From: an uncultured delta proteobacterium
Lineage (GTDB): Bacteria > Desulfobacterota > Binatia > DP-6
Assembly (NCBI GenBank): GCA_963815115.1
Contig: CAWFFN010000008.1
Span: 352,001 to 416,000, forward strand
DNA: 64,000 bases
Direction: 5' to 3'
Under the pieces are notes generated by a model. It saw only the letters and a program-made list of their open reading frames with translations. It was not told where the DNA came from and did no database searches. Both the position numbers and the translations under genes were made by a program. Of this stretch, positions 20,445-41,127 are shown one piece after another. Within the stretch, counting starts at the first letter, position 1; every line of letters begins with the position of its first letter.

Positions 20445-20764
20445 GCTCCCGAGCTCGCGCGTCACGGGCCATGAGGTTCGAACCGATCACCCGCCGGCAT
20501 ACTCGAAGCTGGTCCCGTCTGGCGCGGCGCTAGCCGGCGAGCGCCAGCGCGAACGCGCTTCACGGCCACCCTCATAGAGCAGGTGCAGAGGATACGAGTG
20601 CGAATGGTGACAACGAGCCGGGCGACCTCGACATCGCTGGGCGCCCAGGCGGGATGGACCCCCGAGACTGCCGCGGAGGCGCACGCGTGAGCGCGGTTTG
20701 CAAGCAGATTGCAAGCGGCCGGCTACCAAGCTGGCAACCGGCCGCCCAACTGCCTGATCCGCCT

Positions 20765-20811
20765 GATGGGCCGCGCAGGGATCGAACCTGCGACCCGCTG
20801 ATTAAGAGTCA
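20765..20811 (-). repeat. att copy 1: 47-bp duplicate of the tRNA-Lys 3' half
   Basis: Identical to 41053-41099 (GATGGGCCGCGCAGGGATCGAACCTGCGACCCGCTGATTAAGAGTCA). Confidence 0.95.
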
Positions 20812-21207
20812 CGCCGCATGGTCACTCACGGACGCTACTGGACGCTAACTGCCCGTCGAATCTCACTTCGACCAGGTGGCGAGTGACCAGTGGCGTCCGC
20901 CACGTCCCACCAGGTTGTGACCAACCTGTGACCACGGCCCTTAAGGATGCGGGCATAAGAGCGGCGGCGCGTCGCGAGCTGGCCACTATCTCCCCATATT
21001 GACGCTTCCAGCGGCATGGACTTTCGCCTCGTATGGCAATGCGACCACCATTCTGTCGGCGTGGCATTGTGCCCCGTGCTGGCAACGCTGCGGGGATTCG
21101 CCACGACCACCTGGTGGGCATCATTGACAGCCAGACCAATCGCGACAGAAAGGTCTTGCCAGATCGTCCCCAGAACGGCTATGGATATCCCCATGAGCGA
21201 AACACGC

Positions 21208-22802
21208 ATGACGGTGTCGAAGGCCATCGCGAGGCTGATGGTCGGAACGGGCGCCTTGCTGCTCGTGATGGGCGCCTTCGCGGGCGTCAAGCCGACCCCC
21301 GATCAGAAGTGCGAGGCGGCAAAGCTCAAGCTGGTGGGAAAGAAGGCGGGGTGCGAACTCGGGATCGCGGCGAACCCCAAGAAGGGGAACGACTTCAGCA
21401 AATGCACGACCAGCTATGCCACCGCGTTCCCGAAGGTGAAGGGGACCTGCAGCGGGGACCAGACGGGGCTGGAGACGCAGGTCGACGCCTTCCGGACCGA
21501 GATCGCAGCCGCCCTGACGCCGAACACCAGCAAGTGCCAAGCCGGGAAGATCAAGGCGGCCGGGAAGATGCAGACGTGTGAGCTGCTCGCGGCCGCGAAG
21601 GCCGTGCTGCTGGCGGGGACGGCAGACTTCACGAAGTGCAAGGCCACCTTCGCAACGGCGTGCATGAAGCTGGAGGCGGCCAAGAAGGAAGATTGCACGA
21701 CCACGGGCGATGCGGCGGCGATCGAGGCCAATGTGGACGCGTTCACGGGTGCCGTTCTCGCGGCCATCACCACGACCACGACCGCACTTCCAATTGCCTC
21801 GGGAGCAGCGGGTGACGGTGCCATATCCGCTGCGGGTCAAATCGACAGCTGGACGTTTACGGCCACTGCGGGTGGCAATATCGTCGTGAGTCTCGCCAAG
21901 CTGACCGGTGATAACACCTTTTTTCCGCAGATGGTGCTCTACGGTCCGGACGGCGCACAGCTCGCTGGGTCGCAGACCGAAATCGCCAGGAAGGCGGCCA
22001 GCAGCGGCACCTTCACCGTGCGGGTCAGCGCCGCCATCTACGGCAACGGTGTCTCGGGCACCGGTACGTATCGATTGTATCTTGCCACGGTGCCGGGCGC
22101 CTTTGTGGTACCCGACGGCGACGACGGCGGGCCGCTGACCAATGGCGGAAACCATGATGGGACGCTCCCCTTGGGGGATCTGGACCTGTGGCGTTTCGCA
22201 GCCAATGCAGGTGACAGCATCATCGTGGGCATCGGCACGCTGACCGATGATGGCAACGGGTTTGGGCCGCGGATCCGGCTCTACGGTCCGGACGGCGCAC
22301 TGCTCCCCCAGGGCGCGTCTGGGACCGAAGTCGCCGTGAAGGCGGCCAGCAGCGGCACCTTCACCGTGCTGGTCAGCGCCGCCATCGTCGGCAACGGTAA
22401 CCGAGGCACCGGCACGTATCGGTTGTATTTTGCGAAGGTGCCTGGGGCCTTTGTGGTACCCAGCGGCGACGACGGCGGAATATTGGTTCCGGCCGGACAG
22501 TACGACGGCACGATAGATCTGGGGATCTGGACCTGTGGAGTTTCGCGGCCAATGCAGGAGACAACATCGGCGTGCGCATCGACACGCCGACCGATTTCAC
22601 TGTCAACGGGTTTGATCCGTGGATCCGGCTCTACGGTCCGGACGGCGCACTGCTCGCCCAGCAATACGGTTCGCCGGTCGCCGAAGTCGCCAAGAAGGCG
22701 CCCAGCAGCGGCACCTTCACCGTCGTGATCAGCGACGGCCTCGAGGCTGGGATCGTGGGTACCGGCACGTATCGCCTGACGATATCCGGGATCTCCCCGT
22801 GA
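21208..22802 (+). CDS. Secreted protein: Cys-helical module plus three PPC-like beta repeats; frameshift near 22521
   Basis: KCEAAKLKLVGKK and KCQAGKIKAAGK repeats, TTTTT linker, three LYGPDG...SSGTFTV...GTGTYRL repeats; one extra G in GGGG would join ORFs 21016-22728 and 22572-22802. Confidence 0.78.
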
Positions 22803-23020
22803 GGCCCGCTTCCCGTCGTGACGGCAGTGGCTTCTCATCTTCTGCGCTGCGTCGTTACGGAAGGCGGCGGCCTCGTGCGACGGGCGAGGCGCCAGGCTGC
22901 TACTAGGGTCGCGGCCTTTCGCCTCCGCTGATTCCTGATCAGCGCGGACCCGAGAAGTCCATGCCGGTGCTGGGCTTTTCGCGCTGGTCACAGCAGCGGT
23001 CACAGGGCGATCCCTGTACG

Positions 23021-23373
23021 ATGGCGCGCATGGAGCCCGCGGCTGCAGTCGAGAACCCGCCCGCTGGTCCGAGGGTGCGCCGTCGTCGTGGCTATCGTCG
23101 GAGCGGGTTCTACGCCCTCAAGACCACCCTGCGGCAGCTCGGCCCACGGGTGATCGATAAGTGCACCAGCATCGGCAAGGCGCTGGCACAGTGGCGGGCC
23201 GACTGCGGAAGCAACTCCGTCTGACCCAAGCGGAGTTCTGGCGAGCAGTGCGGCGTCGCCCGCGTCACCGTGACGCGCTGGGAAGCGGCACGCTGACCGT
23301 CGGGACGACCGCCGCCATCCTGATCCGCTTCCTGGCCCAGGAGCGGCGCCGCGCGCGCCAGAAAGGCAGGTGA
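23021..23373 (+). pseudogene. Truncated island gene joined to a degenerate Cro/C1-type HTH
   Basis: ...RVIDKCTSIGKALAQWRAD stops abruptly; LRKQLRLTQAEF / GVARVTVTRWE is recoverable across frames. Confidence 0.5.
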
Positions 23374-23377
23374 CCCC

Positions 23378-24523
23378 GTGAACCGGATCGTACCCTGTGA
23401 GAAGAACGGCCGACCGCAGTACCGCGTCGACTTCATCGGCGCCGACGGGCGGCGGCACCAGAAGTTCCGCCCTACGGAAGAGGAGGCCGAGGATCTACTC
23501 GCCCAAGAGACCATCGCCTCGCGCCAGCCGACGACCTCCGACCTCCCCGCCAGCACCACCCTCGCGCAGTACGCCGAACGCTGGGAGCGCCAGGTGGCTG
23601 CGCACCTGAAGCCCCGCACGCTCGCGAGCTACGGCGACACCTTGCGGCTGCACGTGCTGCCGGCGTTCGGCGCGACCCGCGTGCGCGATCTGCAGCGCGG
23701 GCGCATCAAGCAGTTCCTCGCCGAGAAGCTCAGGACACACTCCGCCAACTCCGTGCGGATCATGCACGCCAGGCTCAGGGTGCTCTTAAACGCCGCCGTT
23801 GACGACGGCCTGATCGTCGCCAACCCGAGCGACAAGCTCGGCCGGAGCATGAAGCTCGTCGTGCGGACGAAGGTGCGGCAGGAAACCATCAAGGCCTTCG
23901 ACCGCGCCCAGCGCGACGCCTTCCTGGCTACCGCGTACCGCATCGAGGCGTGGTGGGCGCCGATGCGGGAGGTCCAGGTACTCTCCGGCCTCCGCCCGGG
24001 CGAGGTCTACGCCCTGGAGGACGCCGACCTCGACCTCGACGCCGCCACGGCCCGTATCGGTCGCACCCTGGCGGACGACGGGCAGAGCGTCGACTCGCCG
24101 AAGGGCAACCGGGGTCGCACGATCGACCTCTCAAGCCGCGCGGTCGCGGTGCTCCGCGCCCATGCCGTGCACGTGCATCGGAAGGCGGAGAAGCTCCGGC
24201 GGAAGTGGCCCGAGCTGCCCGTGCCGTTCTTCTGCTCGACCACCGGGACCTACCCCGATCCCAGGAACGTCCGAGACGCCTTCGCCCCCGTGGTTAAGGC
24301 CGCCACGCTGCCGCACGTCACCCCGCACGGCCTGCGGCACACGTTCGCGTCCCTCCTGCTGCAGGCCGGTACGGACGTGTACTACGTCTCGCGCATGTTG
24401 GGGCATGCGTCGATCAGCGAGACCGTGGACACGTACGGGAGATGGCTGCCGGCGAACCGCAAGGGCGCCCTCGACGTGCTCGACACCCCGGCCGCCGACG
24501 ACCGGTCGGCCGGGAGTCTGTGA
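23378..24523 (+). CDS. Tyrosine integrase (element B)
   Basis: SGLRPGE, HGLRHTFAS, LGHASISETVDTY catalytic residues. Confidence 0.95.
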   Translation: MNRIVPCEKNGRPQYRVDFIGADGRRHQKFRPTEEEAEDLLAQETIASRQPTTSDLPASTTLAQYAERWERQVAAHLKPRTLASYGDTLRLHVLPAFGATRVRDLQRGRIKQFLAEKLRTHSANSVRIMHARLRVLLNAAVDDGLIVANPSDKLGRSMKLVVRTKVRQETIKAFDRAQRDAFLATAYRIEAWWAPMREVQVLSGLRPGEVYALEDADLDLDAATARIGRTLADDGQSVDSPKGNRGRTIDLSSRAVAVLRAHAVHVHRKAEKLRRKWPELPVPFFCSTTGTYPDPRNVRDAFAPVVKAATLPHVTPHGLRHTFASLLLQAGTDVYYVSRMLGHASISETVDTYGRWLPANRKGALDVLDTPAADDRSAGSL

Positions 24524-24586
24524 CCACTCTGTGACCAAAATGGCTAGGATGCCAGAACCTGGCCGCGTAACTACCCGAGTTCCAGT

Positions 24587-24629
24587 ATGGGCCGCGCAGG
24601 GATCGAACCTGCGACCCGCTGATTAAGAG
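24587..24629 (-). repeat. att copy 2: 43-bp duplicate of the tRNA-Lys 3' half
   Basis: Identical to 41054-41096, ending at anticodon loop TTAAGAG. Confidence 0.95.
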
Positions 24630-25001
24630 AGCGTGGACACCCGACACAGCAGACCACAGCCGACGCCAACGGACCGGAATTCTTCGCTTCCGGCGGTGTC
24701 GGCTGTGACTGCTGTACCCCCCTGTGTCCGCGTGGACTCGGACAATTTTCGGACAACGGCGCGCGCGCGTGCCTGCCAGCACACCGCTCATGACGTGACC
24801 AACGGTGGATCGCAGTCGCGTCCGCCGCTCGCCCGCTACCCGGCGCTGGACGGCGGAGGTGACAGCGCGCCGGGCTACTGAGGCGTCGCAGGGATAGGCG
24901 AACGTTCGTTCGCCTCCCGTACGTAAAGAACGCAGCTGACACGACCGGTTGTGAGATGGTCGACTCACGATGAGTCGAATCTGTACTGAGGAGAACTCCA
25001 G

Positions 25002-25565
25002 ATGCGCAGCGTGACCTACTCGATGGCCGTGTCGCTGGACGGCTACGTCGTCGGGCCGGACGGGTCCTTCGACTGGATGGCACCGGACGAGGAGGTCTTT
25101 AACCTAGCCACCGACGAGGTACGCAAGGTCGGAGTCCATCTGCTTGGACGACGGCTGTACGAAACCATGCTGTACTGGGAGACCGCCGACCAGAACCCGT
25201 CGCTCGACTACTCGACGCTCGAATTCGCCGCGATCTGGAGGGCGCTCCCGAAGGTTGTGTTCTCCACCACGCTGTCGGCGGTACAGGGAAACGCCCGCCT
25301 GGCGTCCGGCGGTCTAGAGGAGGAGATCGAGCGTTTGCGAGCCGAAGCGGCGGAGGGCGACATCGCGATCGGCGGCGCGACGCTCGCCACCGAGGCGGCC
25401 GCGTTGGGTCTCATCGACGAGTATCGGATCAGGGTCTTGCCGGTGCTGGTGGGCGGTGGCCGTCCCTTCTTTCCCCAACGCGAGGACCGGGTGAACCTCG
25501 AACTCATCGAGTCCCGTACCCTCAATTCGAGAGTGGTCTACCTCCGCTACCGCGTGGCCCGCTAG
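25002..25565 (+). CDS. Dihydrofolate reductase/RibD C-terminal family protein
   Basis: MAVSLDGYV, LLGRRLYE, IGGATLA, LIDEY...PVLVGGG. Confidence 0.92.
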   Translation: MRSVTYSMAVSLDGYVVGPDGSFDWMAPDEEVFNLATDEVRKVGVHLLGRRLYETMLYWETADQNPSLDYSTLEFAAIWRALPKVVFSTTLSAVQGNARLASGGLEEEIERLRAEAAEGDIAIGGATLATEAAALGLIDEYRIRVLPVLVGGGRPFFPQREDRVNLELIESRTLNSRVVYLRYRVAR

Positions 25566-25776
25566 CCGACTCGTCCCGCCGAGCACAAGAAGGGACACGC
25601 CAGCCAACGGCAAACCGATCCACAGGTCTTGACTATTGCTCGCAGCGCCCCGCTGATTAGGTATCCGTCGGGCGGTGGCAACGTGGCGCGTGACCACGGC
25701 TTTTAGAGGCCTGTCCGGGAACTGTCCGAATCGCGCAGGGCGGTCGCAGTCCATTCGGACTGCGTGGTGTAGCGCC

Positions 25777-26391
25777 TCAGCCCCGTGACGCCCGGACGCG
25801 ATAGTAGCCACCACCCGCGCTCTGGTGGGAGCAGACTGCGTTGGCGAGCTCGTCGCACAGCCGCGCGAGGGCGGCGGCGCGTGCGTGACGGTGTGCCGCT
25901 CTCGCTGCAACAAGCGCCCGGCCCACCGCACGGCGTTCGGCGAGGGGCACCGTGCGCCAGAGCAGCGTGCGGGCCGCTGCGGCGGCGGCAGTCGCTGCGC
26001 GGCGGGCCTCGGGCGTGGCATCCCGCGTCCAGCGGATGCGACGCAGCGTGGCCATGTAGGCGTGGCGCTGGGCGGCGGGCACGAAGCGCCAGCGGGCGGC
26101 GTGCTTCGATGTGCTGGGCGGTGGTGTGGCAGCGGCGAGCTGGTCTGCCGCGCGCTCCGCAGCAGCGGCGAGCGCCGCAGCCCGCGCGCGGGCCCGGTCC
26201 CAGCCGCGCTCCTCGGCGCGGCGGCGGATGAATCGGGCACGCCACGCGGCCTCGTTCAGATCGTAGGGGTCGTCCACCGCGTCGAGGGTAGCACGGAGCC
26301 GCACGACGGCATCTTCCACCACCTGGAATGGTGGTGGAGATGGATCACCGGCATCGGGCAGCAACCTCCGTTCCGTAGCAGTCGGGCGCAC
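25777..26391 (-). CDS. Hypothetical helical protein
   Basis: Ala/Arg-rich ORF following the GIY-YIG-like gene on the same strand; no motif recognised. Confidence 0.4.
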   Translation of the reverse strand: MRPTATERRLLPDAGDPSPPPFQVVEDAVVRLRATLDAVDDPYDLNEAAWRARFIRRRAEERGWDRARARAAALAAAAERAADQLAAATPPPSTSKHAARWRFVPAAQRHAYMATLRRIRWTRDATPEARRAATAAAAAARTLLWRTVPLAERRAVGRALVAARAAHRHARAAALARLCDELANAVCSHQSAGGGYYRVRASRG

Positions 26392-26743
26392 CGCAGTCGC
26401 ATCGTGCCCTAGAACCGTTAGGATGCCCTGCCAATATGGAGAACGGAGTCGACGAGCGGCCGAACCGGTTCGTCGAAGGCTGGTGGATGTTCACCAACTC
26501 CATCTCGCGGAGTCTTGCGCGCGCAGGGCAATGATAGCGCTCAAGTATCTCCACCTCGATCTGTGTGATGCCGTCATGTGCATCGACGAACTGCTGCCAA
26601 GGCGCACTACGTCTGGTCAACGTTCGCGCGCGCCGCTCCGACCCGGATCCGATGTGGAAGAACGCGGCTTCACCCCGCATCCGGTGCCCGTACACCACCT
26701 CGTCCCCCTGGGTCTCATGCTTCGTTGATCGGACCTCAGCCAA
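26345..26743 (-). CDS. GIY-YIG-like nuclease with C-terminal CxCGAxxCxG
   Basis: VVYGH...FFHIGSG..RRA...VEIL...ARLREMELVNIHQPSTN. Confidence 0.55.
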   Translation of the reverse strand: MAEVRSTKHETQGDEVVYGHRMRGEAAFFHIGSGSERRARTLTRRSAPWQQFVDAHDGITQIEVEILERYHCPARARLREMELVNIHQPSTNRFGRSSTPFSILAGHPNGSRARCDCGAPDCYGTEVAARCR

Positions 26744-27630
26744 CGTTACGTCTCCCGCCGGTCCGCCACTCGTCGATGTGCGGTCCTACTGGCGCGACCC
26801 GAGCGCGCTCGCAAGATCGCCAGCCGCTTCCAGCTCGTCGAGGAGGCGCGCGACGTCCGGCTCTGGCCAACGGAGCAGCGCCGCGACCAGCGCCGCGTCC
26901 GCGTCGCAGTCTTCGGGCAACACGCGAGCGCCGCCAGGACGGCGTCGTGGGCAGGCGTGTTCGTGTCGGCGCGCTGCATGGCCGCAGAGTAGCACCTTCG
27001 TTCCGGCAGACGACGTTCATCGCAGGCCACCCACACTCAAAGATCACCGGTAAGCGGACTGCCAGCTTCACGGGTTGGTCACCCGAAGACAGCGACGTGA
27101 CGGGCCACCCCGACAGGGAGGACGATTCACCCAGGCCCCTGACTGTCCCCCGGAATGCAGGACGGACGGATTTTCTCGAAAAGGTAGCCCCCTGGCTGGC
27201 TGTGCCCAAATTGACAGCAGGCGAGCGGCGAACCAACGAACGTCGCGCCAAGTATTTTCGCCTCGCGGGTCCGGCCCTCAAGCCGCTCGCGCCTCCGGGA
27301 CGCCGGAGGCCATGCCTGGCATGCATGGATCGCCGCGAGAATTGCGTCCGGAGCTGTAGGGCGGGGCACACGCCGGGACACATCCGGAAACCCAGCCCGA
27401 GCTTCCCGTTTTCCAGTTACCCCTGTTCCGCAGACAGACGGTCATCGCGCGGGCGTTCGCCTCAGGGTCCCCGAAGTGGGGTGGTCGGGCGAGTGGCAGT
27501 GGCGGGCGAGTGGAGGTGAGCTACAAGGGGGCAGGATGGATTGCCAGATCACTCCCAATTGCACTATGAAGCACCAGGAGCTGGCGTCGGCCCCATGACG
27601 CGCCATGACGCCACCCTAGGGAGGTTATTG

Positions 27631-28610
27631 ATGGGTCCTGTGTCTCCTGGCCTAAGCAGGCTTCTGTTGGCCGCGATCGGACTCACCCTCATCGCGCTTG
27701 GTCCCTCGGAAGCGGCACTTTGCAAGAGGCGAAACGGGGAGCTGATCGTTCACCCCACGTGCGGCGGCAAACTTCTTCCGGCAACCGCTGCCGACCTCGG
27801 CCAGCTGGGCATCGGACCGAAGGGAGACAAGGGCGACGAGGGAATCCAGGGACCGAAGGGCGACAAGGGCGACCAGGGATCCAAGGGCCGAAGGGCGAGC
27901 AGGGGATCCAGGGGGCTAAGGGGGACCAGGGAATCCAGGGGGCCAAGGGGGACCAAGGAGTCCAGGGAGAGAAGGGGGACAAGGGCGACCAGGGACTCCG
28001 CGGACTCCAAGGAATCCAAGGAATCCCAGGCTTCCCGGGAAGCCCAGGGCAAAAGGGGGACAAGGGCGACCCGGGTCCGCCCGGGGTGACCACGCGGGTC
28101 GTAAAGGACTCGCGCGGGGTCACGGTGGGGAAAGTGATTGACCGAACAGAGCTTGGCGTGGCCTCGTTACCGTCGGGAATCTATTTCTTCCGCTCCGTCG
28201 GCCAAATCCACGTCCTCATGTTTTTGCCCGATCCGTTTTCAATTCAGGGCGTCTGCACGCTCTCGCCTTGCGACGTGGTAGCGCTGGACCAAAATAGTAC
28301 CTGTGATGCTTCGGGGCTGCACCCGTCCCTTCTCGTTCCCGTAGATAGCAACATTCAAGCCCTGTTCAGCCCACCCGACTTCTACGTCAGCAGTGTTGTT
28401 GTAGACAGTGAGTTCTTCGGTCCAAACACGCTGCTCTACCCGAGCGATCTGGGCGGGCAGCATGCGATTGCTTCATATTTTACTTACTCCGACCACAGTT
28501 GCCATTCGGGGCCGTTGCCTTACGAGGCTGCTACCTCTGCTGTGCAGTTTCTTGATATGAATGCTTTCACACCGCCGTTTGAGGTGGTTGACGTAGTGCA
28601 GACACCTTAG
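27631..28610 (+). CDS. Secreted collagen-like protein; frameshift near 27878
   Basis: Signal peptide, Gly-X-Y run (GPKGDKGDQGIQ)n, lower-GC C-terminal domain; one added G joins the two ORFs. Confidence 0.8.
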
Positions 28611-28902
28611 CGAGGTTGCTCCTCACACGGTTCAGATGGCCTGGGACGAGGTCGTGGGCGGGCTGACCGGGTTCGGGTGAACCCGGAACTTGGTGCAACC
28701 ACCCAGATGCGCCGCTCGTCAGCGAGCCCGCGGCCTCAAGGCCTAGCAAGAGCAGGAGGCCTCGGGACTTGCCCCTGCTGGGACAAGCCGTCACGTCGAA
28801 TCGCATTCGGTCGCACGATCCGTTCAGGTCGGCTCGGTCGGTGTGTACCGGCTGTTGTACCGGTAACGTCACCATCCCGGAGAAGACCCAAGCGGCTCCG
28901 GT

Positions 28903-29310
28903 GTGGCAGGAGGCGCTTCGACGTCGGGTTTCACAGAAGGTGCTCGGGTGAATGCCACCGTGAATCGATACGAACGCGATCCCCGCGCGCGAACCGAGTG
29001 CATCAATGCACACGGGGCGCGGTGCTGGGTCTGTGGCTTCGACTTCGAGGCAACGTATGGTGCCGTGGGAGCGGGTTTCGTCCTCGTCCACCACCTGGTG
29101 CCGGTGGCGAGACGGGCGGCGGCGGGACCGTATCAACTCGATCCCGTGGCGGATCTGGTCCCGCTATGCGGCAACTGTCATCCGATGATGCATCGGCGTG
29201 CGGATCGGCTCGGTGAGATGGGAGGCTGTCTGACTCCAGACATCCGCCAGCGCCTCGCGCGCTTGAGAGAATTGGCTGCTCTCGACTCGTGGGAGGCGAT
29301 CCGCGATTAG
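28903..29310 (+). CDS. HNH endonuclease (McrA-like domain), possibly N-terminally truncated
   Basis: EGA...NRYERDP, CWVCGFDF..YG, VHHLVP, DLVPLCGNCH. Confidence 0.82.
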   Translation: MAGGASTSGFTEGARVNATVNRYERDPRARTECINAHGARCWVCGFDFEATYGAVGAGFVLVHHLVPVARRAAAGPYQLDPVADLVPLCGNCHPMMHRRADRLGEMGGCLTPDIRQRLARLRELAALDSWEAIRD

Positions 29311-29359
29311 CCGACGCAGCGGTTTGCCCCTGCAGTGACCCGAAGGGCTCGCGTCAATC

Positions 29360-30705
29360 GGTGTGTAAATCCTGAGGATCAGGCGGCGGCCTTCAGCGCC
29401 TTCTCCTTGACGAGCTTTCCGTCCTCGAACTTCCTCCCGTCGTAGACCGCGGCGAGCAACTCGGGCGCATCGAGGCGGCGGAAGCGCCGTTCGGCGACCA
29501 TGAGCAACCGCCACAGCAGCGCCGTCGCGTTGTCAACCTTCTTGAACCGCTTCGCCGCGTCGGTCCGCAGGCGCACGGCCGCGAACGGCGACTCGATCAC
29601 GTTCGTCGTCCGCAGATGCTTCCAGTGGCCCTCCGGGAAATCGTAGAAGGTCACGAGGCGGTCCCAATCCGTCTCGAGAATCTCGACCGCGCGCGGGTAC
29701 ACGCGTCGGTACGTCTTCGCGAACGCATCGCGCCGGCGCTCGGCGTCCGCGCGCGTGGGCGCGTAGGGGATCGCGGCCAAGGCCTCCCGTGCCGCGGCCT
29801 GCACTTTCTTCGGGAGCTGGGTCAACACGTTCACGATCTTGTGATTCCAGCACCGCTGCTCGGCGGCCCCGGGCCAGATCTCGGCGACGGCGGCCCAGAT
29901 CCCCGCAGCGCCGTCGGCCGCCAGCAGCTTCGGCACCTGGAGCCCGCGGTCGCGCAAGTCGCGCAGCACCCCGCGCCACGAGTCGGTCGACTCGCGGTAG
30001 CCGGGCACGACCGCGAGCACTTCCTTGCGCCCGTCGCGCAGCGCCCCGATGATCACGAGCAACGCCGCCTTCTCCCGCTCGAGCCCGGCGCGCACATAGA
30101 TCCCGTCGGCCCACGCGTACACGAGTTCGTGCTCGTCGAACCGGCGGGTCTTCCACAGGTCGTAGTCGCGCACGAACTTCGCTCGCAGGCGCTCGATCGA
30201 CTTCGCACTCAACGGCGCGCCGTCGCCGAGCAGGCCTCGCAACGCCAGCTCGAAGTCCCCTTGGGCCAACCCGTGCAGGTAGAGCTCGGGCAACAGATCG
30301 GCCACTTGCTCGGTGCGCCGCGCGAACAGCGGCAGCACCCGACTCTCGAAGTGCTCCTCGAGCCCGCGCACCCGCGGCCGCTGCACCACGAGCGTCCCGG
30401 TCTGCATCGCCAGCCGCCGCGGCTTCCCGTAGCCGTTGCGGTAGCCGACCGGCGCATCGATCCCGGCCCGCCGCTCGTGTCGCTGGCGACCGAGCAACTC
30501 CGTCACCTCCACCTCCAAGAGATCCTGCACGAACTCCTGGACCTTCTCCCGGACCCAGCCCTCCAACGTCTCCCACGTCGGCCTGGTCCTCGGGCGCTCC
30601 TCTCTGCTACGTCTCCTCATGGGCGATGTCTCCTTCCACCCGGCGCCAACCGGGTCTGGCTTCGGCAGCCGGAAGGTTACGTCGCCCGATCCTCTTTTAC
30701 ACACC
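29360..30705 (-). mobile_element. IS256 family insertion sequence
   Basis: Terminal IRs GGTGTGTAAA...GAGGATC(A/G)GGCG at both ends; no target duplication seen. Confidence 0.9.
29379..30620 (-). CDS. IS256 family transposase
   Basis: YRNGY, ADGIY, ADG, QRCWNHK, RTTNVIES. Confidence 0.93.
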   Translation of the reverse strand: MRRRSREERPRTRPTWETLEGWVREKVQEFVQDLLEVEVTELLGRQRHERRAGIDAPVGYRNGYGKPRRLAMQTGTLVVQRPRVRGLEEHFESRVLPLFARRTEQVADLLPELYLHGLAQGDFELALRGLLGDGAPLSAKSIERLRAKFVRDYDLWKTRRFDEHELVYAWADGIYVRAGLEREKAALLVIIGALRDGRKEVLAVVPGYRESTDSWRGVLRDLRDRGLQVPKLLAADGAAGIWAAVAEIWPGAAEQRCWNHKIVNVLTQLPKKVQAAAREALAAIPYAPTRADAERRRDAFAKTYRRVYPRAVEILETDWDRLVTFYDFPEGHWKHLRTTNVIESPFAAVRLRTDAAKRFKKVDNATALLWRLLMVAERRFRRLDAPELLAAVYDGRKFEDGKLVKEKALKAAA

Positions 30706-30755
30706 TGCTGATCTTAGCCCAGCCCGATCGGTAGTTGGCGGTAGGACGCAGTCAC

Positions 30756-31300
30756 ATGAGACAGAACGAAGAACGCCGGTGCTACCGCTGCGGCGTTTCG
30801 AAGCCATTGGGGGCGTTCATGCAGCGGATCGACGATCGGCACTACAGCATGTGCCGTGTGTGCGTGTCGGAGATCCTCTCACCCGCCGGGGCAGCACTCG
30901 GAAGCAGCGGCTTCCACACACCTCCACTGACCGCGTGTGCTACCTCTGTAGAAGGACGTTGCCCAACGCGGCTTTCACGCGCCGCTCCAACGGCTCGTAC
31001 TTCTCCGCCTGCAAGGAGTGCAATCGCCACGTCTTCGCCCAGCGCAGGCGCGCACGGCTCTGTGCTGCGGAGGGTAGCTACACGCTGGCGGAATGGCAGG
31101 CGCTGGTAGCGCTGTACGATCGCTGTCCCATGTGCCTTCGCGAGTGGGCGTCGATTCCGCCTTCTCTGGGAGGCGCCGACGTGAGGACGATCGACCACAT
31201 CGTCGCCATTTCACGGGGCGGCTCGAATCGAATCGAGAACATTCAACCCCTCTGCTATTCGTGCAACTCTCGGAAGGGCGCGCGCGACCGGCTATTGTAA
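30756..31300 (+). CDS. HNH endonuclease with two N-terminal C4 zinc fingers; frameshift near 30878
   Basis: CYRC..CRVC, CYLC..CKEC, CPMC, DHIVAISRGGSNRIENIQPLCYSCN; joins ORFs 30735-31109 and 30626-31300. Confidence 0.8.
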
Positions 31301-31432
31301 TGCAGCGCCGTCGCCAGCGAGCGTCTAGGGCCCGCCATTGCACTACCGCTCGACCAGCGAGACGACACGGTGTCTCGCAATCAACGCGTTACGACCTGAC
31401 GAGAACTGCTCCATGGAGGAAGAGGAGGACGC

Positions 31433-33255
31433 ATGGACTTGAAGGGCATCAGCATCACGGCGGACGACATTCGAGAGAGCGACTGGCGGGGCGTCATCCG
31501 GGAGAGTTCGGAGCGAGATAGCTCCCTCTATTCTACGGCCTTTCTGCGTGCAGCCACTGCAGAGGGCTGCGTTGAGCCGGAGCGGTCCGTCTTCCTTGTT
31601 CTGGGGGCCTTGACCACGCTCCATCTCAAGCCGCACGACTCAACGGAACCATTTGGCCCGATGCTGGCATTCGGTGGATCGAGATCGCCTCTTCCTGGCG
31701 ACTTCACGACGGAGCAGTTGACAGCTCTGAGCGAGGTGCTTGACGAGATCGACGATGCCGACCTTCGAGCGCGCATAGCCGACGTGCTCTGGTTGCAGAC
31801 CCGAGATCATCGCGCGGCGGTGGCTGCCGTGAACAGCTATCTGGAAGCGGCGTCGGCGCTTGAGGATTGGGAAAATTGGGGAGCCTGCGCAGACCGCTTG
31901 ACGCGGGCCTTTCGGCTAGCGGTAACGCTTGGGCGGGCGGGCGAAAGTTACCCGCGAGCACTGGCCGCTGTCGAGGACGTGATCTCGAGATGCAACGGCG
32001 AGGATCCCTCTTTCTGTCAGCGACGTTGATGGAGCTGCTCCTCGACCATGGAGCAGGCGACCCGAACTGCTACGCTCCGCTGGCGGAGAAGCTAGCAACG
32101 ACCGCGAGTGCCGCAGGCGAAACGCACAGGGGGGAGACCTACTGGAACCTCGCCGCTCGGTGGTGGCGACGGGCAAACGATGAACCCCGAGCGCAGCGGG
32201 CAACAACAGAGGCGGCAGAGCTGTTTGTACGTGAAGCGGAAGCAGCGGAGAAGAGAGGTAGCGCCTTCGTCGCGGCTCTTCAGATGCAGAAGGCGATCGC
32301 TACCTTCCGCCGGGTGCCGAACACCAAGACCCGCGTCGATGAGCTTCACGAGCGGCTTCTCGAGTACCAGGCACGATCGGTATCGGAGTTCAAGGAGGTG
32401 ACGGCTAGTGCAGATATCACTGAGCTAGTCGCGCAGGCCGTCAAGGCGGTGGAAGGGAAGACGTTGAGGGAGGCGTTCGTCAACTATGCGAAGGTATCAT
32501 GCTCGGAGAAGGTGGCCGTTCTGAGAGAAGAGGCAGAGCGCACGCTGGCCCAGTATCCGATGCAAGGTCTGTTCGAGACCGTACTTGTCAATGAAGCGGG
32601 GAAGGTCACTGGACGGAAGGCAGCGGCTGGCTTCGGTACCAGCGGAGACGAGCAGGCCCTGAGCGCGCGAATGTTCGAGCAGGCGCGATTGCACCAAACG
32701 CTATCAGCACATGGGGCAATCGAACCTTGCCGCCGAGTGCTGAATCGGGAACATCCGATCACTCTCTCGACGTTTCTCAGTATAGTCAGGAGCAGTCCGT
32801 TCGTCCCTCCAGGCCGTGAACTCTTGTTCGCCACGGGCCTGATGGCGGGGATGGAGGGTGACTACCTGACAGCCGCACATATCCTGATCCCTCAGGTCGA
32901 GCACACGATGCGATGGTACCTCGCGGGTGAGGGCATCATCACGTCGAGCCTGGATCAAGACGGCATCCAGGAGGAGTTCGATCTCAACCGAGTCTTCCAC
33001 TCGCCAGAGCAATGCGAGGTTCTGGGCAAGTTCATCGGAGAGAATACGGTGTTCGAGCTACGAGGTCTCCTGGTTGAGCGGGCCGGATCAAACCTACGCA
33101 ACCTGATGTCGCACGGCCTCCTTTCCGACAATGCCTTCCTGTCTCCAGCCGTATGCTACCTTTGGTGGCTCGTGCTGCGCCTTTGCATCCTGGGTATCCT
33201 GGCCGCCGAGCGGCATGCGAGCCAACCACCGACGCCTGATGGTTCGCCCAACTGA
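31433..33255 (+). CDS. DUF4209-type protein with C-terminal HEPN-like RX4H; frameshift near 32007
   Basis: LRARIADVLW, SPFVPPGRE, HILIPQVE, NLRNLMSHGL; one added C in CCC restores GEDPLFLS. Confidence 0.78.
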
Positions 33256-33561
33256 GGAAACCGGCTTCACGGACGCGCGGGCGGCCTAGCGCCCCCAAAC
33301 CCGATCGACCCCGCACCACCTCACCGGAAATCGGAACCCAAAGCGGACGGCTCATACAGAGTTTTCATTTTCCGCCGTTGGCGCGATCGCCGCGAGGGGC
33401 GACGTCCGTCAACTCGTGGCGCGTCCTGGCGCCTCCTAGCGCGGGCGTGTGTCTCGCGGCGTCTCGGGGCGTGGAGGTCGTCGCGCGAGAGTACTCGCAC
33501 ACGTCGCGCTCTCTCTTGACGACGTCACAGCGCGAGCCTACAGAGGGAAGCGGAGAGAGGA

Positions 33562-33781
33562 ATGGCGAAGCCGAAGGACAGGACCAACCTTCACGAGGCT
33601 CGCCTACAGCCCTGCGGAGGTCGCGTCGCTGCTCGGCCTCTCGGGGGCGGCGCTGGACCGTTTGCTCCGGGCGGGTACCGTGCCGTCGATCAAGCTGGGG
33701 GACCGGCGGCTGATCGCGCGGGCGGCGCTCGAACGTCTGCTCGCAGGTGGTGCCACGAACAGCGAGTTCCCCGTAGCGTGA
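33562..33781 (+). CDS. Excisionase-like HTH (frameshift near 5' end)
   Basis: RLAYSPAEVASLLGLS....RLLRAGTVPSIKLGDRRLI. Confidence 0.72.
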
Positions 33782-34034
33782 ACGCTCGGTGATGAAAACG
33801 GAGACGATGATGACGTAACTCGCCTGCGACGCACGTCGGCGACGCCACGAACGGCGAGTCGCGAGGCCATCCCGTCTGCCCACGGGAGGATGGACGCTTC
33901 GGCACACGGTGCCCGAGCGGACCTCCGAAGGGCGGCGGCGAACCTCGGGTTCGCCGTTCGTGCGTTCAGGCCCCAGCGCGAGGGGCGAGCGCCCAACCGG
34001 ATGAGACCGGGACGCCCGCCCCTGCGGAGGCCGG

Positions 34035-34241
34035 ATGGACGGTATCGTAGAGCGGCATGGGGAAGGCTGCAACGGGCGCGCGGCATGGCGGGCATGGGTG
34101 ATCCGCGTCGCGACACGCCTGCTCGGCGGCGACGCGGTGGGATTCGATGGCTTCGACGACGACGACAGGCTGGACGTCCTGCGTTGCCTGGCCGAACTCC
34201 TCGCTGGGCGGGATCAGCGGCGGCGGGGCCGGGCGGTATGA
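34035..34241 (+). CDS. Small hypothetical protein
   Basis: ATGA overlap with the Prim-Pol start. Confidence 0.5.
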   Translation: MDGIVERHGEGCNGRAAWRAWVIRVATRLLGGDAVGFDGFDDDDRLDVLRCLAELLAGRDQRRRGRAV

Positions 34242-34887
34242 AAGCGCCGCTGACGCTCCGGGCCGCGCGGTGGTACGCCCAGCACGGGCTGTTCGTCTTT
34301 CCGATCTGGCAGCCTGCGGTCGATGCGGCGGGGACCGTCACCGGGGACTGCACCTGTCCGCCGACGCATCTGAGCCGCGATCCGGGGACGGGCGTCTGTG
34401 CGAGCCCCGGCAAGCATCCGATGACGTCGAACGGACATCTCGACGCCACGACCGATCTCGCGCGCATTGACGCCTGGTGGCGCAAGCATCCGACCGCCAG
34501 CGTCGGCATCGCGTGCGGACCGTCCCGGCTGGCGGTTCTCGACGTCGATCCACGACACGGAGGCGACGACCAGCTAGCCGAGCTTGGGAAGGTCCATGGT
34601 CCCCTGCCCAGCACCTGGCGCGTGCTCACGGGAGGCGGCGGGCTGCATCTACCTTTTCGAGCGCCCGACGGCGTGGCGCTGGTCGATGGCGAGGTCGCCC
34701 GGGGCCTCGACTTCAAAGCGAACGGCTACATCGTCGCGGTGCTGTCGCTCCATGTGAGCGGTCAGCGGTACGTGTGGGAGGTCGGCTACGAACCGTGGTC
34801 GCTCCCGCTCGCGCCATTGCCGCTGGACTTGCCCCCGACCGGCGAACACCCCAGATGTGGGCGTGAGCCCACGAGGAGGGTGTTCGG

Positions 34888-35205
34888 ATGCGGAAGAAGG
34901 TGGAGGGCAAGGGAGCGAGTCGCCGCCCACGGCGATCGTTCACGAGTTCGTTCAAGGCCGAGGTCGTCGCCTTGGTGCGACAGGGTGACCGGACGATCCC
35001 GACGATTTGTCGGGAGATGGACCTGAGCGAGACGGCGGTGCGCCGCTGGGTCGAGCAGGTGGCGGTCGACGCGGGCGAACGGGAGGGGCTGACGACCGAG
35101 GAGCGCGAGGAGCTGCGGCGGTTGCGGCGCGAGGTGCGGGTGCTCCGCGACGAGCGGGACATCTTGAAGCGGGCGGCGGCTTTCTTCGCGATGGAGACCC
35201 GATGA
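34888..35205 (+). CDS. IS3 OrfA
   Basis: RRSFTSSFKAEVV HTH, EELRRLRRE, ILKRAAAFFA. Confidence 0.92.
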   Translation: MRKKVEGKGASRRPRRSFTSSFKAEVVALVRQGDRTIPTICREMDLSETAVRRWVEQVAVDAGEREGLTTEEREELRRLRREVRVLRDERDILKRAAAFFAMETR

Positions 35206-36083
35206 GCCGGTACCGGTTCGTCGAGGCGGAGAGTCGTCGGTATTCGGTGACGCAGCTTTGCCGGATCGCCCAGGTCTCCCGCACCGCCTACTACGAGTGG
35301 CAGGACGGGCCGCCGTCGCAGCGTGAACGAGACGATGCGGCACTGCTGGCGAAGATCAAGGCGATCCATGCGGCGTCGGACGGCCAATACGGCGTGCCCC
35401 GCGTGCTGGCTGAGTTGCAGGCCCAGGGCCACGAGGTCGGCCGCAAGCGCGTAGCGCGGTTGATGAAGGCAGCGGGCCTGCGAGGTCGTCGCCCACCGCG
35501 CTGGGTCCGTACGACGACACCGGAACCGACACCGCCGGCGATCCCCGATCTCGTGCATGGGAAGTTCGAAGCGCCGTCCCCCGACATGCTGTGGGTCGGC
35601 GACATCACCTACATCCGCACGTGGGAGGGCTGGCTGTACCTGGCGACGGTCATCGACGTCTTCTCGCGTCGCGTGATCGGATTCTCCCTCGCCGGTCACT
35701 TGCGCGCATCGCTCGTGTGCGATGCGTTGATGATGGCCGTCGCTACGCGCAGCGGAAACGTTGAGGGTGTCATCTTCCACTCGGACAGGGGAAGCCAATA
35801 CACCTCGGCCGAGTTCCGGGCACTGTGCGATGCGCACGGCGTGAAACAGTCAATGGGAAAGACCGGCGTCTGCTGGGACAACGCCCTCGCCGAGTCCTTC
35901 TTCGCGACCTACAAGCTCGAGCTCATCGAGCCCCGGTCATGGCCGACCCGGGCTCGCACACGGACGGCGACCGTTCACTGGATCGAAGCCGTCTACAACC
36001 GCCAGCGTCGGCACTCAGCCATCGACATGATGAGCCCCGTCGACTACGAGGACCGATACTGGAATCGCCGCGCAGCGGCTTAA
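35202..36083 (+). CDS. IS3 OrfB DDE transposase
   Basis: WVGDITY, HSDRGSQY, DNALAESFF; ATGA overlap with orfA. Confidence 0.93.
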   Translation: MSRYRFVEAESRRYSVTQLCRIAQVSRTAYYEWQDGPPSQRERDDAALLAKIKAIHAASDGQYGVPRVLAELQAQGHEVGRKRVARLMKAAGLRGRRPPRWVRTTTPEPTPPAIPDLVHGKFEAPSPDMLWVGDITYIRTWEGWLYLATVIDVFSRRVIGFSLAGHLRASLVCDALMMAVATRSGNVEGVIFHSDRGSQYTSAEFRALCDAHGVKQSMGKTGVCWDNALAESFFATYKLELIEPRSWPTRARTRTATVHWIEAVYNRQRRHSAIDMMSPVDYEDRYWNRRAAA

Positions 36084-36376
36084 CTCAGGTGTTCGCCCGG
36101 ACGGGGCAAGACCACGCCGTGGCTCCTAGAGCATCGGCGGGCCGAGTCGGCGCATGCGGATCGGCTGTGTGCCGATGGGACCGCCCTGCTCCTGCGCGAA
36201 GGCGAACGCAATCAGGGGCTCTTCCGGATCGGGAGTGCGTTGCGCCGGTACGGCATCGGTGGTGCGGCGCTGCTGAACTGCCTGCGCGCCATCAACCGAG
36301 ATCACTGCGTACCCCCGCTCCGGGAGGCGGAAGTACAGCGGATCGCGACCAGCGTCGCCCGCTACCGCCCCGGCTG

Positions 36377-38031: not shown

Positions 38032-38068
38032 ACCGGACGACGGAGATGTCGGCGAGGTACTCCGATGA
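36437..38068 (+). CDS. Putative replicative helicase/AAA+ ATPase with C-terminal winged helix
   Basis: Degenerate Walker A APPGGTKS, LVLKDF, LREIYDG, GERF; LSTSAIA...TAVRRALEDL; coupled to Prim-Pol. Confidence 0.7.
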   Translation: MAQATFTPVRVPHGWHLEVQVSSKKRVVLEAVSPHFDRGAVRAALTIRAGKTLLLRDTVNLTSARARARVVAALAEKKINLDERPLVALDEACRSGRPTAQPGGCDGAPNVSEKVPALTMAELEARVRHWLLVNDPALLPVLVGAVLTHRLDGDPVWLLNVAPPGGTKSELLRALYRYPGVYPLSELTPKTFASGLEVPGGTNPSLLARLTNEILVLKDFTTVLEMRREDRQTILAQLREIYDGRYDKTWGTGRELRWEGRLGFVAGVTPIIDKHQAAMSILGERFVLFRPIMPDRKQLAMAALKSRGREREMREDLARAMHGFLAARGSAMPEVSAAVLDRVATVADFVTRARSGVQRDGFRRELEYAPEPEAPTRFAKVLLSLASGIALAYDSPEITGRELGLVLRVALDCLPLIRHRVIAALVEETITADADGRLSTSAIAGTAQFSGTAVRRALEDLQALDVVVCQKAGAGKPDQWALGERWREVFRELAADARGPHTGAGNGRGDGSPDVSETVGDTVSETSVPPSQPDDGDVGEVLR

Positions 38069-39603: not shown

Positions 39604-39622
39604 TACGAACGAACTGTAGGAT
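39593..39622 (+). promoter_or_regulatory. Possible sigma70 promoter of the RHH-integrase unit
   Basis: TTGCCA-N18-TAGGAT followed by ACGGCAG direct repeats. Confidence 0.4.
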
Positions 39623-39703: not shown

Positions 39704-39844
39704 ATGCAAACGACCACGTTGTCCCTGCCCGAAGACGTGCATTGGAAGCTGCGCGACCTGGCGCTCCAGGAGCGCACCACCGCCCGCGAGCTGATCCGCA
39801 AGGCCATCGAGCAGTACCTCGCGCGGCGGGAGCGGCGGGCATGA
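39704..39844 (+). CDS. Ribbon-helix-helix (CopG-like) regulator
   Basis: MQTTTLSLPEDVHWKLRDLALQERTTARELIRKAIEQYL; AAAGGA RBS; ATGA overlap with integrase. Confidence 0.8.
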   Translation: MQTTTLSLPEDVHWKLRDLALQERTTARELIRKAIEQYLARRERRA

Positions 39845-41046
39845 CCGAGCAGACGGATGACACGACGCCCACCCGGAAGCGCAAGCGCGAGCACACGGGC
39901 GTTTTCCAGCGCGGCACCGTCTGGTGGATTGCCTACTGCCATCGCGGCACCGAGATCCGCGAGAGCGTCCAGAAGGTGACCGGGAAGAACACCAGGGCGG
40001 CAGCGAAAACCTTGCTCACGAAGCGACGCCGCACCGCAGGCACGCCGGACTTCCTCGGTCCTGCAGCGGAGCGCGTGACCTACGACGACCTCGCGACGCT
40101 CTACCTGAACGATTACGGCCTGAACCGCCGCCGCTCACTCCGCGATGCGAAGCGGAACGTCGAGCAACTCCGGGCCACGTTCGGGGAGCTGCGGGCGCTC
40201 GACATCACGACCGACCGAATCGCCTGCTACACGGCGGCACGCTTGGCGGAGGGCAGGCGACCCGCGACGGTCAATCGCGAGCTGGCCGCGCTGCGGCGAA
40301 TGTTCGCGCTCGCGGTGCGCGCGGCGCTGCTCCACCACCGCCCACACATCCAGTTGCTCGTCGAGGACAACGTGCGCGAGGGCTTCCTCGAGCCGTCCGA
40401 CTTCGCTGCCCTGCGGGCGTACTTACCGGGTTGGCTCGTTCTCGCCATCGACTTTCTCTACCTGACCGGCTGGCGTCGCAGCGAAATGACGACGCTCACC
40501 TGGGCCGACGTCGACCTGCGGGTGGGCGTGATTCGCCTCCGGTCCGCCCGCAGCAAGAACAAGCGCCCCCGCGTGCTGGTCCTGCGACGCTCTCTGCGTG
40601 CCGTGCTCGAGGCGCAGGCCGCGAAACGGACGCTCGACTGCCCGCTCGTCTTCCACCGCGATGGCCTACCGCTGGGAGACTTCCGCCGCCCGTGGCGGGC
40701 CGCGTGTGCGGCAGCAGGGCTCGGCAGGCTCCTCGTCCACGACCTCCGCCGCTCCGCCATCCGCAACATGATCCGCGCCAAGGTTCCCGAGCGGATCGCC
40801 ATGGCCGCTAGCGGGCACCTCAACCGCAACGTGTTCGACCGCTACAACATCGTCAGCGAGCAAGACCTCGCGGACGCCGCCGAGCAGACGCTCGCTTACG
40901 TCGAGACCGCCAGCACGGCATCCCCGAGCGTGGTGCCGCTCACAGCCGCGCGCCGGACCCATTCAGCCGGAGAATTCGGACAATTTCCGGACAATCAGGC
41001 TCAGGCGGGGGCCGCGCCGACACCCGACGCGGCCCTAACTGCCTGA
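39841..41046 (+). CDS. Tyrosine integrase (element A)
   Basis: TGWRRSE, SKNK, HDLRRS, SGH..RNVFDRY; ends 8 bp from tRNA-Lys. Confidence 0.95.
   Translation: MTEQTDDTTPTRKRKREHTGVFQRGTVWWIAYCHRGTEIRESVQKVTGKNTRAAAKTLLTKRRRTAGTPDFLGPAAERVTYDDLATLYLNDYGLNRRRSLRDAKRNVEQLRATFGELRALDITTDRIACYTAARLAEGRRPATVNRELAALRRMFALAVRAALLHHRPHIQLLVEDNVREGFLEPSDFAALRAYLPGWLVLAIDFLYLTGWRRSEMTTLTWADVDLRVGVIRLRSARSKNKRPRVLVLRRSLRAVLEAQAAKRTLDCPLVFHRDGLPLGDFRRPWRAACAAAGLGRLLVHDLRRSAIRNMIRAKVPERIAMAASGHLNRNVFDRYNIVSEQDLADAAEQTLAYVETASTASPSVVPLTAARRTHSAGEFGQFPDNQAQAGAAPTPDAALTA

Positions 41047-41054: not shown

Positions 41055-41127
<73 letters not shown>

Follow-up and report, generated by a model that had tools for sequence, protein, structure and literature searches.

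A candidate non-recombining copy of the att core at the cargo border of two tandem integrative elements in a tRNA-Lys gene of a Binatia genome

Integrative elements seated at tRNA genes are a main route of bacterial gene gain, and their attachment (att) sites are usually described as one core with two arms. A 64,000-nt stretch of DNA from an uncultured delta proteobacterium (Desulfobacterota, Binatia, DP-6; assembly GCA_963815115.1, contig CAWFFN010000008.1, positions 352,001 to 416,000; hereafter the window) raises the question of what a further, internal site may be doing in such elements: two of them, A and B, stand in tandem at a tRNA-Lys(CTT) gene, and each carries a second core-type site which tracks the anticodon stem of the tRNA, has a different overlap sequence and brackets one cargo gene. 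A preliminary description of the locus proposed that the integrase may capture, excise or swap this terminal cargo as an integron-like cassette, or use an alternative end. The reading that we favour, with about even confidence and on the strength of sequence comparison, is that the internal site is a conserved integrase-binding pseudo-att site, which would not recombine, would have a regulatory or architectural role and would border a zone tolerant of cargo.

The intact tRNA-Lys(CTT) gene heads a Lys-His-Arg-Pro tRNA cluster (ARAGORN), and on the plus strand its core consists of a left arm, GCTGA (41085-41089), a 7-bp overlap or spacer, TTAAGAG (41090-41096), and a right arm, TCAGC (41097-41101). 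The 30 nt of its 3' part that reach the anticodon loop have exactly three exact matches (20779-20808, 24600-24629 and 41067-41096), and the whole 3' part, from the 3' end to the anticodon loop, is repeated twice beyond the intact gene (24589-24629 and 20767-20808); two integrative elements thus stand here in tandem (Table 1). This is the layout of tRNA-targeting elements, with direct repeats of 41-47 bp that run from the tRNA 3' end to the anticodon loop, end at TTAAGAG and leave an intact tRNA beside the integrase gene (int), and the same repeat layout recurs in six related loci (L039, L197, L265, L235, L245 and L253). The junction between A and B keeps the recombining overlap sequence and is an ordinary tandem junction.

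Each element has its own arm-type word, arranged in three doublets: D1, 11-bp-spaced and beside int; D2, about 111 bp inside the far end; and D3, inverted and placed past the internal site, which we call the pseudo-core. Exact TGTGACCA occurs five times in the 64-kb window, all inside B (20916 and 20927, plus strand; 22985, minus; 24519 and 24530, plus), with a one-mismatch copy at 22997 (minus). In A, TCGGACAA stands at 24738, 24749 and 40976, all on the plus strand, with one-mismatch copies at 40987 (plus) and 25722 (minus) and the inverted partner at 25711. The geometry of B and A is nearly equal, with 111 and 112 bp from the core centre to D2, 41 and 42 bp from the pseudo-core right arm to D3, and 107 and 117 bp from D1 to the core centre, and both read CCGCTGATT-N39-GGCTTTT ahead of D3. 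All the motifs listed in the preliminary description are present where it placed them, including in B an internal site made of the anticodon-stem arms around a different 7-bp spacer (5 of 7 positions differ from TTAAGAG); in A, and likewise in the related element L265, the two arms are not complementary. The two cases are independent, as stated earlier, because the integrases of A and B (IntA and IntB) are just 27% identical (over 168 aa).

Table 1. Features of the tandem array, numbered from the first letter of the window (ORF, open reading frame; RHH, ribbon-helix-helix; HTH, helix-turn-helix).
Feature	Position	Strand	Evidence and remarks
Remnant arm of a third, older element	20698..20758	+	doublet TTGCAAGC twice (20698, 20709) and AACTGCCTGAT motif (20748-20758)
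Element B	20767-24629		integrase B, two small genes upstream of it, one cargo gene
attR of B	20767..20813	+	tRNA-Lys 3' fragment, end GCTGA-TTAAGAG-TCACG; sequence, exact 30-nt match
D2 of B	20916..20934	+	TGTGACCA twice; 111 bp past core centre
Cargo of B	21016..22802	+	repeat protein with PPC (pre-peptidase C-terminal) domain; frameshift-like near 22520 (by eye)
Pseudo-core of B	22925..22943	+	CCGCTGA-TTCCTGA-TCAGC; arms a perfect palindrome, equal to the anticodon stem
D3 of B	22985..23004	-	inverted doublet, TGTGACCA/TGTGACCG; 41 bp past pseudo-core
Small genes between D3 and int of B	23021..23373	+	first ORF starts 17 bp past D3
Integrase B	23378..24523	+	381 aa; Pfam PF00589, E 3.2e-19; PDB profile matches; AlphaFold model, pLDDT 86
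D1 of B	24519..24537	+	TGTGACCA twice; overlaps int stop; 107 bp ahead of core centre
Element A	24589-41101		integrase A, RHH, HTH_17-like, Prim-Pol, IS256-type transposase
A/B junction	24589..24629	+	tRNA-Lys 3' fragment, end GCTGA-TTAAGAG; attR of A and attL-type end of B
D2 of A	24738..24756	+	direct doublet, TCGGACAA twice; 112 bp past core centre
705-bp cargo module of A	24937..25641	+	RibD_C gene 25002-25565 (Pfam); GCAGC on both flanks
Pseudo-core of A	25650..25668	+	CCGCTGA-TTAGGTA-TCCGT; left half equals tRNA core through spacer nt 3
D3 of A	25711..25729	-	inverted doublet, CCGGACAG/TCGGACAG; 42 bp past pseudo-core right arm
HTH_17-like gene of A	39175-39603		before integrase A
RHH gene of A	39629-39844		before integrase A
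Integrase A (tyrosine recombinase)	39841..41046	+	Pfam PF00589, 1.6e-18
D1 of A	40976..40994	+	TCGGACAA/CCGGACAA, 11-bp spacing, directly after the PF00589 region; 117 bp ahead of core centre
tRNA-Lys(CTT), intact	41055..41127	-	attL side of A; ARAGORN, sequence, exact 30-nt match

Short motifs in GC-rich DNA invite the suspicion of chance resemblance, to which we give next to no probability. The motif CCGCTGATT, i.e., the left arm with two spacer bases, is found 5 times in the window against 0.48 expected, a count reached in none of 100 shuffles; three of the five belong to the att copies and two to the internal sites, and together they make up 5 of the 17 copies on both strands of the 6.89-Mb genome. 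Chance was rejected on these counts, on the recurrence of the geometry and on the co-variation of the arms with the tRNA target, both described below.

The loci compared came from metagenome contigs, species-representative genomes and relatives of the window's genome; the closest IntB relatives (70-87% identity) are not among them, the L020 locus (57% identity to IntB) extends just 1.4 kb upstream and has no tRNA, in L017 no attR lies within reach, and most GGTAGC doublets of genome G063, which stand away from any integrase, were left out. An 11-bp-spaced doublet after the int stop and ahead of a minus-strand tRNA was present in 11 of the 12 relatives examined and in further loci, the tRNAs downstream of int in the family being those for Lys, Thr, Arg, Val, Gly, Ala, Leu, Phe and others. 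In the loci whose far end could be located, the distance from D2 to the core is regular too (111 bp in L039, 112 in L197, L265 and L034, 109 in L235 and L245, 110 in L253 and about 111 in L307), with exceptions in L238 (78 bp), L186rc (86 bp) and L019 (123 bp, a single site). By direct reading and automated scan, the pseudo-core with its inverted doublet was recovered in five further elements from other genomes: L197 (G006, of the same family as the window's genome; tRNA-Arg(CCT); arm word GTGACC), L265 (G151; integrase 59% identical to that of A; tRNA-Lys(CTT); GCGCACA), L011/L307 (G007; tRNA-Lys(CTT) in the same four-tRNA cluster; TGCAAGC), L285 (tRNA-Ala(GGC)) and L296 (tRNA-Leu(CAA)). No synteny of the L011 left flank with genome G000 was found.

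To enter the scan, a locus needed int with a minus-strand tRNA downstream of it, a D1 repeat no shorter than 7 nt and 1.5 kb or more of upstream sequence. Fifty elements passed, and an inverted doublet of the element's own D1 word lay upstream of int in 6 of them; 4 of these 6 carry a tRNA-derived 7-mer (at most one mismatch) 42-52 bp from the doublet, for a background of 0.06-0.28 per 90 bp. Elements A and B and L197 were read directly and missed by the scan (arm-word offset; tRNA fragment uncalled by ARAGORN), and absence among the 50 loci says little because most of them stop short of the far end. Where the module is present its dimensions are kept: six sequences align gap-free, and the gap between right arm and D3 is 41, 42, 43, 43, 42, 43 and 43 bp in seven of eight elements and 33 bp in L011. 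The backbones of A and L265 have just the RHH and int genes in common and both keep the module, which therefore travels with the integrase and not with the backbone. Among the loci compared, the module marks a subset of the family, yet spans both integrase lineages.

The arms of the pseudo-core follow the target tRNA and the spacer does not. At Lys-CTT, where the real core is GCTGA-TTAAGAG-TCAGC, the pseudo-core reads GCTGA-TTCCTGA-TCAGC in B, GCTGA-TTAGGTA-TCCGT in A, GCTGA-TCCTCCA-TCCGA in L265 and GCTGA-TTCTCAG-TCAGC in L011/L307; at Arg-CCT (real CCTGC-TTAGGAG-GCAGG) L197 has CCTGC-TGAATTG-GCAGG; at Ala-GGC (CTTGA-ATGCCAT-TCAAG) L285 has CTTGA-TGGTCAG-TCAAA; at Leu-CAA (CGGAA-TTTTGAG-TCCCG) L296 has CGGGA-TTCGCTA-TCCCG; and the pseudo-core arms for Lys-TTT are CCTGA/TCAGG. 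Counted by eye in the seven clear cases, 64 of 70 arm positions agree with the cognate tRNA, against 19 of 49 spacer positions; 3-6 of the 7 spacer positions differ from the real core in every case, and in all seven the identity between core and pseudo-core runs through the left arm and on into the overlap for its first 1-3 bases. In B, L197 and L011 taken together the arms are fully matched (30/30) and the spacers are not (9/21), and the probability that all 12 mismatches would fall in the spacers is ~2e-6 (hypergeometric, by hand). The palindrome of B and L011 extends over 6 bp, one base better than that of the tRNA, and the inverted doublet changes with each element's own D1/D2 word. Such a pattern would be expected of a site selected for binding by the two DNA-binding specificities of the integrase, and against recombination with the real att sites. 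As to an alternative target, the pseudo-spacers were compared with the anticodon loops of other tRNAs and this candidate was rejected, no such loop being found among the 60 tRNA calls in G000, where the GCTGA/TCAGC stem belongs only to Lys-CTT and Thr-TGT.

A tRNA-derived core inside an element may also be a functionless relic, i.e., an att junction in decay, the leftover of an earlier integration or of tandem accretion of the CIME-ICE (cis-mobilizable element, integrative and conjugative element) or PAISt type and conserved by descent only, an explanation that we judge rather unlikely. Tandem arrays at one tRNA are common in the family (A, B and the third remnant in the window; L186rc; L138; L181rc). 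In L181rc (the reverse strand of G063:C7:397000-416999) the outer attR of tRNA-Thr(TGT), a doublet and a cargo gene are followed by an internal attR-like site of the tRNA-Thr(CGT) type, whose element-side sequence is common with the attR of L034, and then by a second direct doublet; accretion, or a change of target between isoacceptors, is clear in this case. Moreover, the flank left of the pseudo-core resembles the T-arm of the tRNA, in the correct register, in L265 (23/47, T-loop 8/10), in L285 (15/24) and in A (29/41 by eye, with the 705-bp module set aside), though the likeness is weak in B, L197 and L307. Neutral decay, however, would strike arms and spacer alike, which is not what the counts above show, nor would it give B and L011 a palindrome better than that of the tRNA, or keep the 41-43-bp spacing to an inverted doublet across integrases of 27% identity with different arm words. 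Real tandem junctions in these loci are perfect tRNA fragments of 41-49 bp, preceded by D1 and followed by D2 at about +110; neither doublet stands in that place at the internal site. The pseudo-att site favoured here probably began as an old tRNA-derived att junction, which would have been kept for binding and disarmed in its overlap.

The same co-variation bears on whether the site belongs to another protein or process, such as an operator for an excisionase or a regulator, an origin of replication or transfer, or a terminator hairpin of the cargo gene. The palindromes of B and L197 could form 5-6-bp hairpins right after the cargo genes, 5 of 8 elements have a T-rich tract ahead of D3 (by eye), and RHH and HTH genes adjoin int. 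Against this, the arms change with the target tRNA and the doublet with the D1/D2 word, which ties both halves of the site to the two DNA-binding specificities of the integrase; no terminator-like site was called at either pseudo-core in a scan of 20700-26000, which tells little in a GC-rich, non-model organism, and the right arms of A and L265 are not complementary to the left ones. We therefore regard such an origin of the site as very unlikely.

The DNA between D2 and the pseudo-core varies as freely as the site itself is kept, in line with what the preliminary description anticipated for homologous elements. It amounts to 22 bp without a gene in L039, about 180 bp plus the 705-bp module in A, about 430 bp with an ORF of 126 aa in L197, 1.8 kb with a P-domain protein in L307 (minus strand), 2.0 kb with the PPC-domain protein in B (plus strand) and 2.9 kb with a 791-aa protein in L265 (minus strand). 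The cargo proteins compared are unrelated, and the genes do not share an orientation, those of B and A lying on the plus strand and those of L265 and L307 on the minus strand. The cargo gene of B has no further copy in the genome. That of A, previously called DHFR-like, encodes a RibD_C-family protein (Pfam) and sits in a 705-bp module, with 65 bp before the gene and 76 bp after it, which begins about 180 bp past D2 and ends 8 bp ahead of the pseudo-core, so that neither end is a crossover point. A second copy with 1 mismatch lies in an unrelated context (G000:C8:718108-718812) and has no core- or pseudo-core-like sites, and contigs of four runs from four studies (soil, rock and freshwater) hold the module with 0-1 mismatches (99.9-100%) while diverging from the window on both sides of it. 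Among 401 genomes of the class the module was found only in G000, in two copies. It has no terminal inverted repeats and no attC-like element by eye, and near its left end there is a hairpin with a 7-bp stem. The 705-bp module is thus a small mobile unit, inserted into the space that separates D2 from the pseudo-core.

These observations do not support the cassette proposal in its original form. Capture, excision or swapping of the cargo by recombination between core and internal site does not agree with overlaps that differ at 3-6 of 7 positions, and the cargo of A, its own 705-bp module, moved by another route, because the module ends off the att-like sites and its second copy is devoid of them. 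Nor is the arrangement integron-like, as there is no array, no integron-type integrase and no attC. A modified version retains some probability because the cargo of L307 is flanked by a repeat of the left half of the pseudo-core: the site would serve as a docking place where a circular single-gene cargo is inserted or exchanged by the integrase, in a heterology-tolerant reaction like that of IntDOT, for which identity in the left arm and in 1-3 initial bases of the overlap would be enough. In five elements variable single-gene cargo does directly adjoin the pseudo-core on its left. Three core-like sites are seen in L307 (4929-5099), namely a decayed attR (about 111 bp ahead of D2), a left half-site (4 nt past D2) and, after the 1.8-kb cargo, the pseudo-core, and the 10-bp direct repeat CCCGCTGATT that brackets the cargo, 4 nt past D2 and in the pseudo-core, is the trace expected of an insertion at the pseudo-core; a 9-mer of this repeat occurs 3 times in 9150 bp for 0.09 expected. 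Identity of the left arm and of 1-3 overlap bases is, in the accessible part of the published work, the requirement reported for the first exchange by IntDOT (PMC2817482). On the other side stand the ends and the second copy of the A module and the mixed orientation of the cargo genes; by eye, B, A, L197 and L265 show no convincing repeat of the left half-site past D2, no cassette arrays were seen, and the real att sites of the family share long perfect identity (41-49 bp). All considered, docking of cargo by the integrase seems to us unlikely. In the Logan contigs no joint across either cargo was seen; the cover consists of few short contigs (the best with 0.21 of the words, the rest with 0.12) and carries no weight either way.

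How an integrase-binding pseudo-att site would work can be sketched from the build of the integrases. In both, a core-binding (SAM-like) domain precedes the catalytic domain (PF14659 and PF22022 in IntB, PF24624 and PF02899 in IntA), and no Pfam match was obtained for the N-terminus of either. Among the PDB profile matches of IntB are Tn1549 Int, XerD, lambda Int and others; the core-binding domain of lambda Int aligns from residue 54 onwards, and IntI4 covers only residues 292-363. The AlphaFold model of IntB begins with strands at residues 3-9, 12-20 and 26-31 followed by a helix at 34-48 (pLDDT ~90), a putative arm-binding fold with the topology of the lambda and Tn916 N-domains. IntB is thus predicted to be built like a heterobivalent integrase, with catalytic, core-binding and N-terminal arm-binding-type domains. 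Homologs of IntB number in the hundreds, mostly in soil metagenomes, and of the 401 genomes of the class that were sampled, 134 have a homolog of IntA.

In the pseudo-att site, two core-type half-sites reproduce the anticodon-stem arms of the tRNA that the element targets and flank an overlap that no longer matches it. Together with the T-rich stretch that follows and, at a fixed 41-43 bp, an inverted pair of the element's own arm-type sites, they could accommodate two protomers of such an integrase, the C-terminal domains at the palindrome and the N-terminal domains at the doublet, with the DNA bent between them. The differing overlaps would keep the resulting closed mini-intasome from productive strand exchange with attL, attR or attB, and the site would act as an integrase-dependent operator, insulator or titration site at the inner border of the P arm. 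In elements of the B type it lies 17-27 bp upstream of the first gene in a string leading into int (17 bp from the end of D3 to the first ORF in B, 27 bp in L197), a position which, by analogy, suggests negative feedback by the integrase; the N-terminal half of the first ORF after D3 in B resembles that of the ORF after D3 in L197 (by eye). The stretch between D2 and the pseudo-core would be needed by neither attP nor the pseudo-att site and would tolerate insertions, hence the presence there of one variable cargo gene.

Several observations speak against a conserved role as a pseudo-att site. A has no convincing plus-strand gene after D3, and the backbones past D3 are unrelated in A and L265; the A type is thus at odds with a simple operator that controls a conserved operon, and an insulating, titrating or architectural role may be the better fit there. 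No sigma-70-like promoter appeared in the scan of 20700-26000, a result that is uninformative for a GC-rich, non-model organism. Both elements of the window look decayed, so that the function possibly lies in the past and the module may be a fossil in this genome even should it be active in relatives; in B the cargo gene (near 22500-22530) and an XRE-like HTH gene (23161-23373) look frameshifted by eye, and the element is probably no longer functional, while in A the Prim-Pol gene is split by an insertion sequence. L034, L186rc, L235, L238, L245 and L253, in which both ends were identified, have D1 and D2 only, and a variant form with correct arms has a spacer of 15 instead of 7 nt in L039 and L019; L036 has another, with a TGATT-GGG-AATCA palindrome 66 bp from the inverted doublet. 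The second left half-site flanking the L307 cargo looks like a recombination footprint at the pseudo-core. Finally, heterology of the overlap is not for every tyrosine recombinase an absolute bar to exchange, as a single identical base at the cleavage site can suffice for IntDOT, according to the part of the report available (PMC2817482).

Known recombination modules share portions of this arrangement. The attP of the lambda type likewise has a core on an inverted repeat with a 7-bp overlap and paired arm repeats about 50-120 bp on both sides, and it is served by heterobivalent integrases with a three-strand-plus-helix N-terminus, core-binding and catalytic domains, an architecture predicted here for IntB. 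In phage L5, extra arm-type sites are dispensable for recombination. The elements described here differ from lambda-type attP in the second complete core-type palindrome with non-matching overlap, in its own inverted doublet and in the cargo of up to 2.9 kb between. An operator made of integrase sites has a precedent in KplE1, where IntS represses its promoter through arm and core sites, and the accessible part of the work on IntS and TorI predicts such autoregulation to be widespread among tRNA-associated integrases (PMC2951348). There, as far as that text goes, the operator is the functional attL beside int; the candidate operator proposed here is a separate, disarmed copy at the far side of an element whose int is directed toward the tRNA.

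Tandem accretion of CIMEs and ICEs, studied in Streptococcus thermophilus, reportedly also yields composite elements with internal att sites. These and the island PAISt resemble the present elements in having three att-like sites in direct orientation, in carrying cargo at the int-distal end and in forming tandem arrays at one tRNA, and differ in that here the internal overlap is different in every case, the binding arms are kept and the adjoining doublet is inverted. For PAISt, the available part of the report describes modular excision of a composite island through internal att sites that recombine (PMC4057263); the earlier statement that simple attL/attR models leave a third site unpredicted was thus overstated, but such published sites keep the recombining sequence. 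Tycheposons, which carry tyrosine recombinases, insert at tRNA genes, are flanked by partial tRNAs and pile up successively, leaving degenerate remnants and cargo modules, are alike in targeting, flanks and pile-up, and the accessible text on them describes no module of pseudo-core and inverted doublet (bioRxiv 10.1101/2020.12.28.424599). With integrons the elements have in common an integrase and a defined place for single promoterless genes, but there is no IntI-type integrase, attI, attC or array, each element holds a single gene, and the cargo of A moved independently. IntDOT of CTnDOT, a tyrosine recombinase with an arm-binding domain, recombines differing overlaps if 1-2 bp match at the first cleavage, according to the portion of the study at hand (PMC2817482); the pseudo-cores keep that kind of identity, whereas real att sites here share 41-49 bp. 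In the literature searched, which covered few subscription journals and no supplements, no description of a pseudo-core with co-varying palindrome and inverted arm doublet was found.

Such a site would be a new functional part of recombination modules, perhaps a built-in integrase sensor or operator in the form of a mini-intasome or, less likely, a place of cargo docking; in the latter case a disarmed copy of the att site would give tRNA-targeting elements an integron-like platform for acquiring genes. On either reading the module would offer a sequence signature for the inner boundary of the cargo zone in such elements, and a natural separation of integrase binding from recombination would be of interest for integrase engineering.

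Further features accompany the array. The remnant of a third, older element stands left of B (20698-20766), immediately before the tRNA fragment, and its arm is similar to the int-proximal arm of A; its arm word TTGCAAGC is also found after a paralogous integrase (G000:C7:1091704-1092852) and in L307, and its AACTGCCTGAT motif also precedes the tRNA end in A and in relatives. A ACTGCCTGA-like motif is conserved in many family members 10-25 bp ahead of the tRNA 3' end, between D1 and the core (20748-20758 and 41037-41047 in the window; L024, L075 and L114 among the relatives), and may be the site of a host bending protein or other accessory protein. Three TTGGCACC-like direct repeats follow D2 in L253 (6735-6790), possibly a set of sites for an accessory protein of the excisionase type. 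In the IntA-type loci L293, L298, L289 and L276, int and the tRNA downstream of it (e.g., a tRNA-Arg(CCT)-like gene) share a strand, the reverse of the arrangement in the window. Within A, an IS256/Mutator-type transposase gene occupies 29379-30704, and the Prim-Pol gene (33890-38068) is split by an IS3-type element with ORFs at 34888-35205 and 35007-36083.

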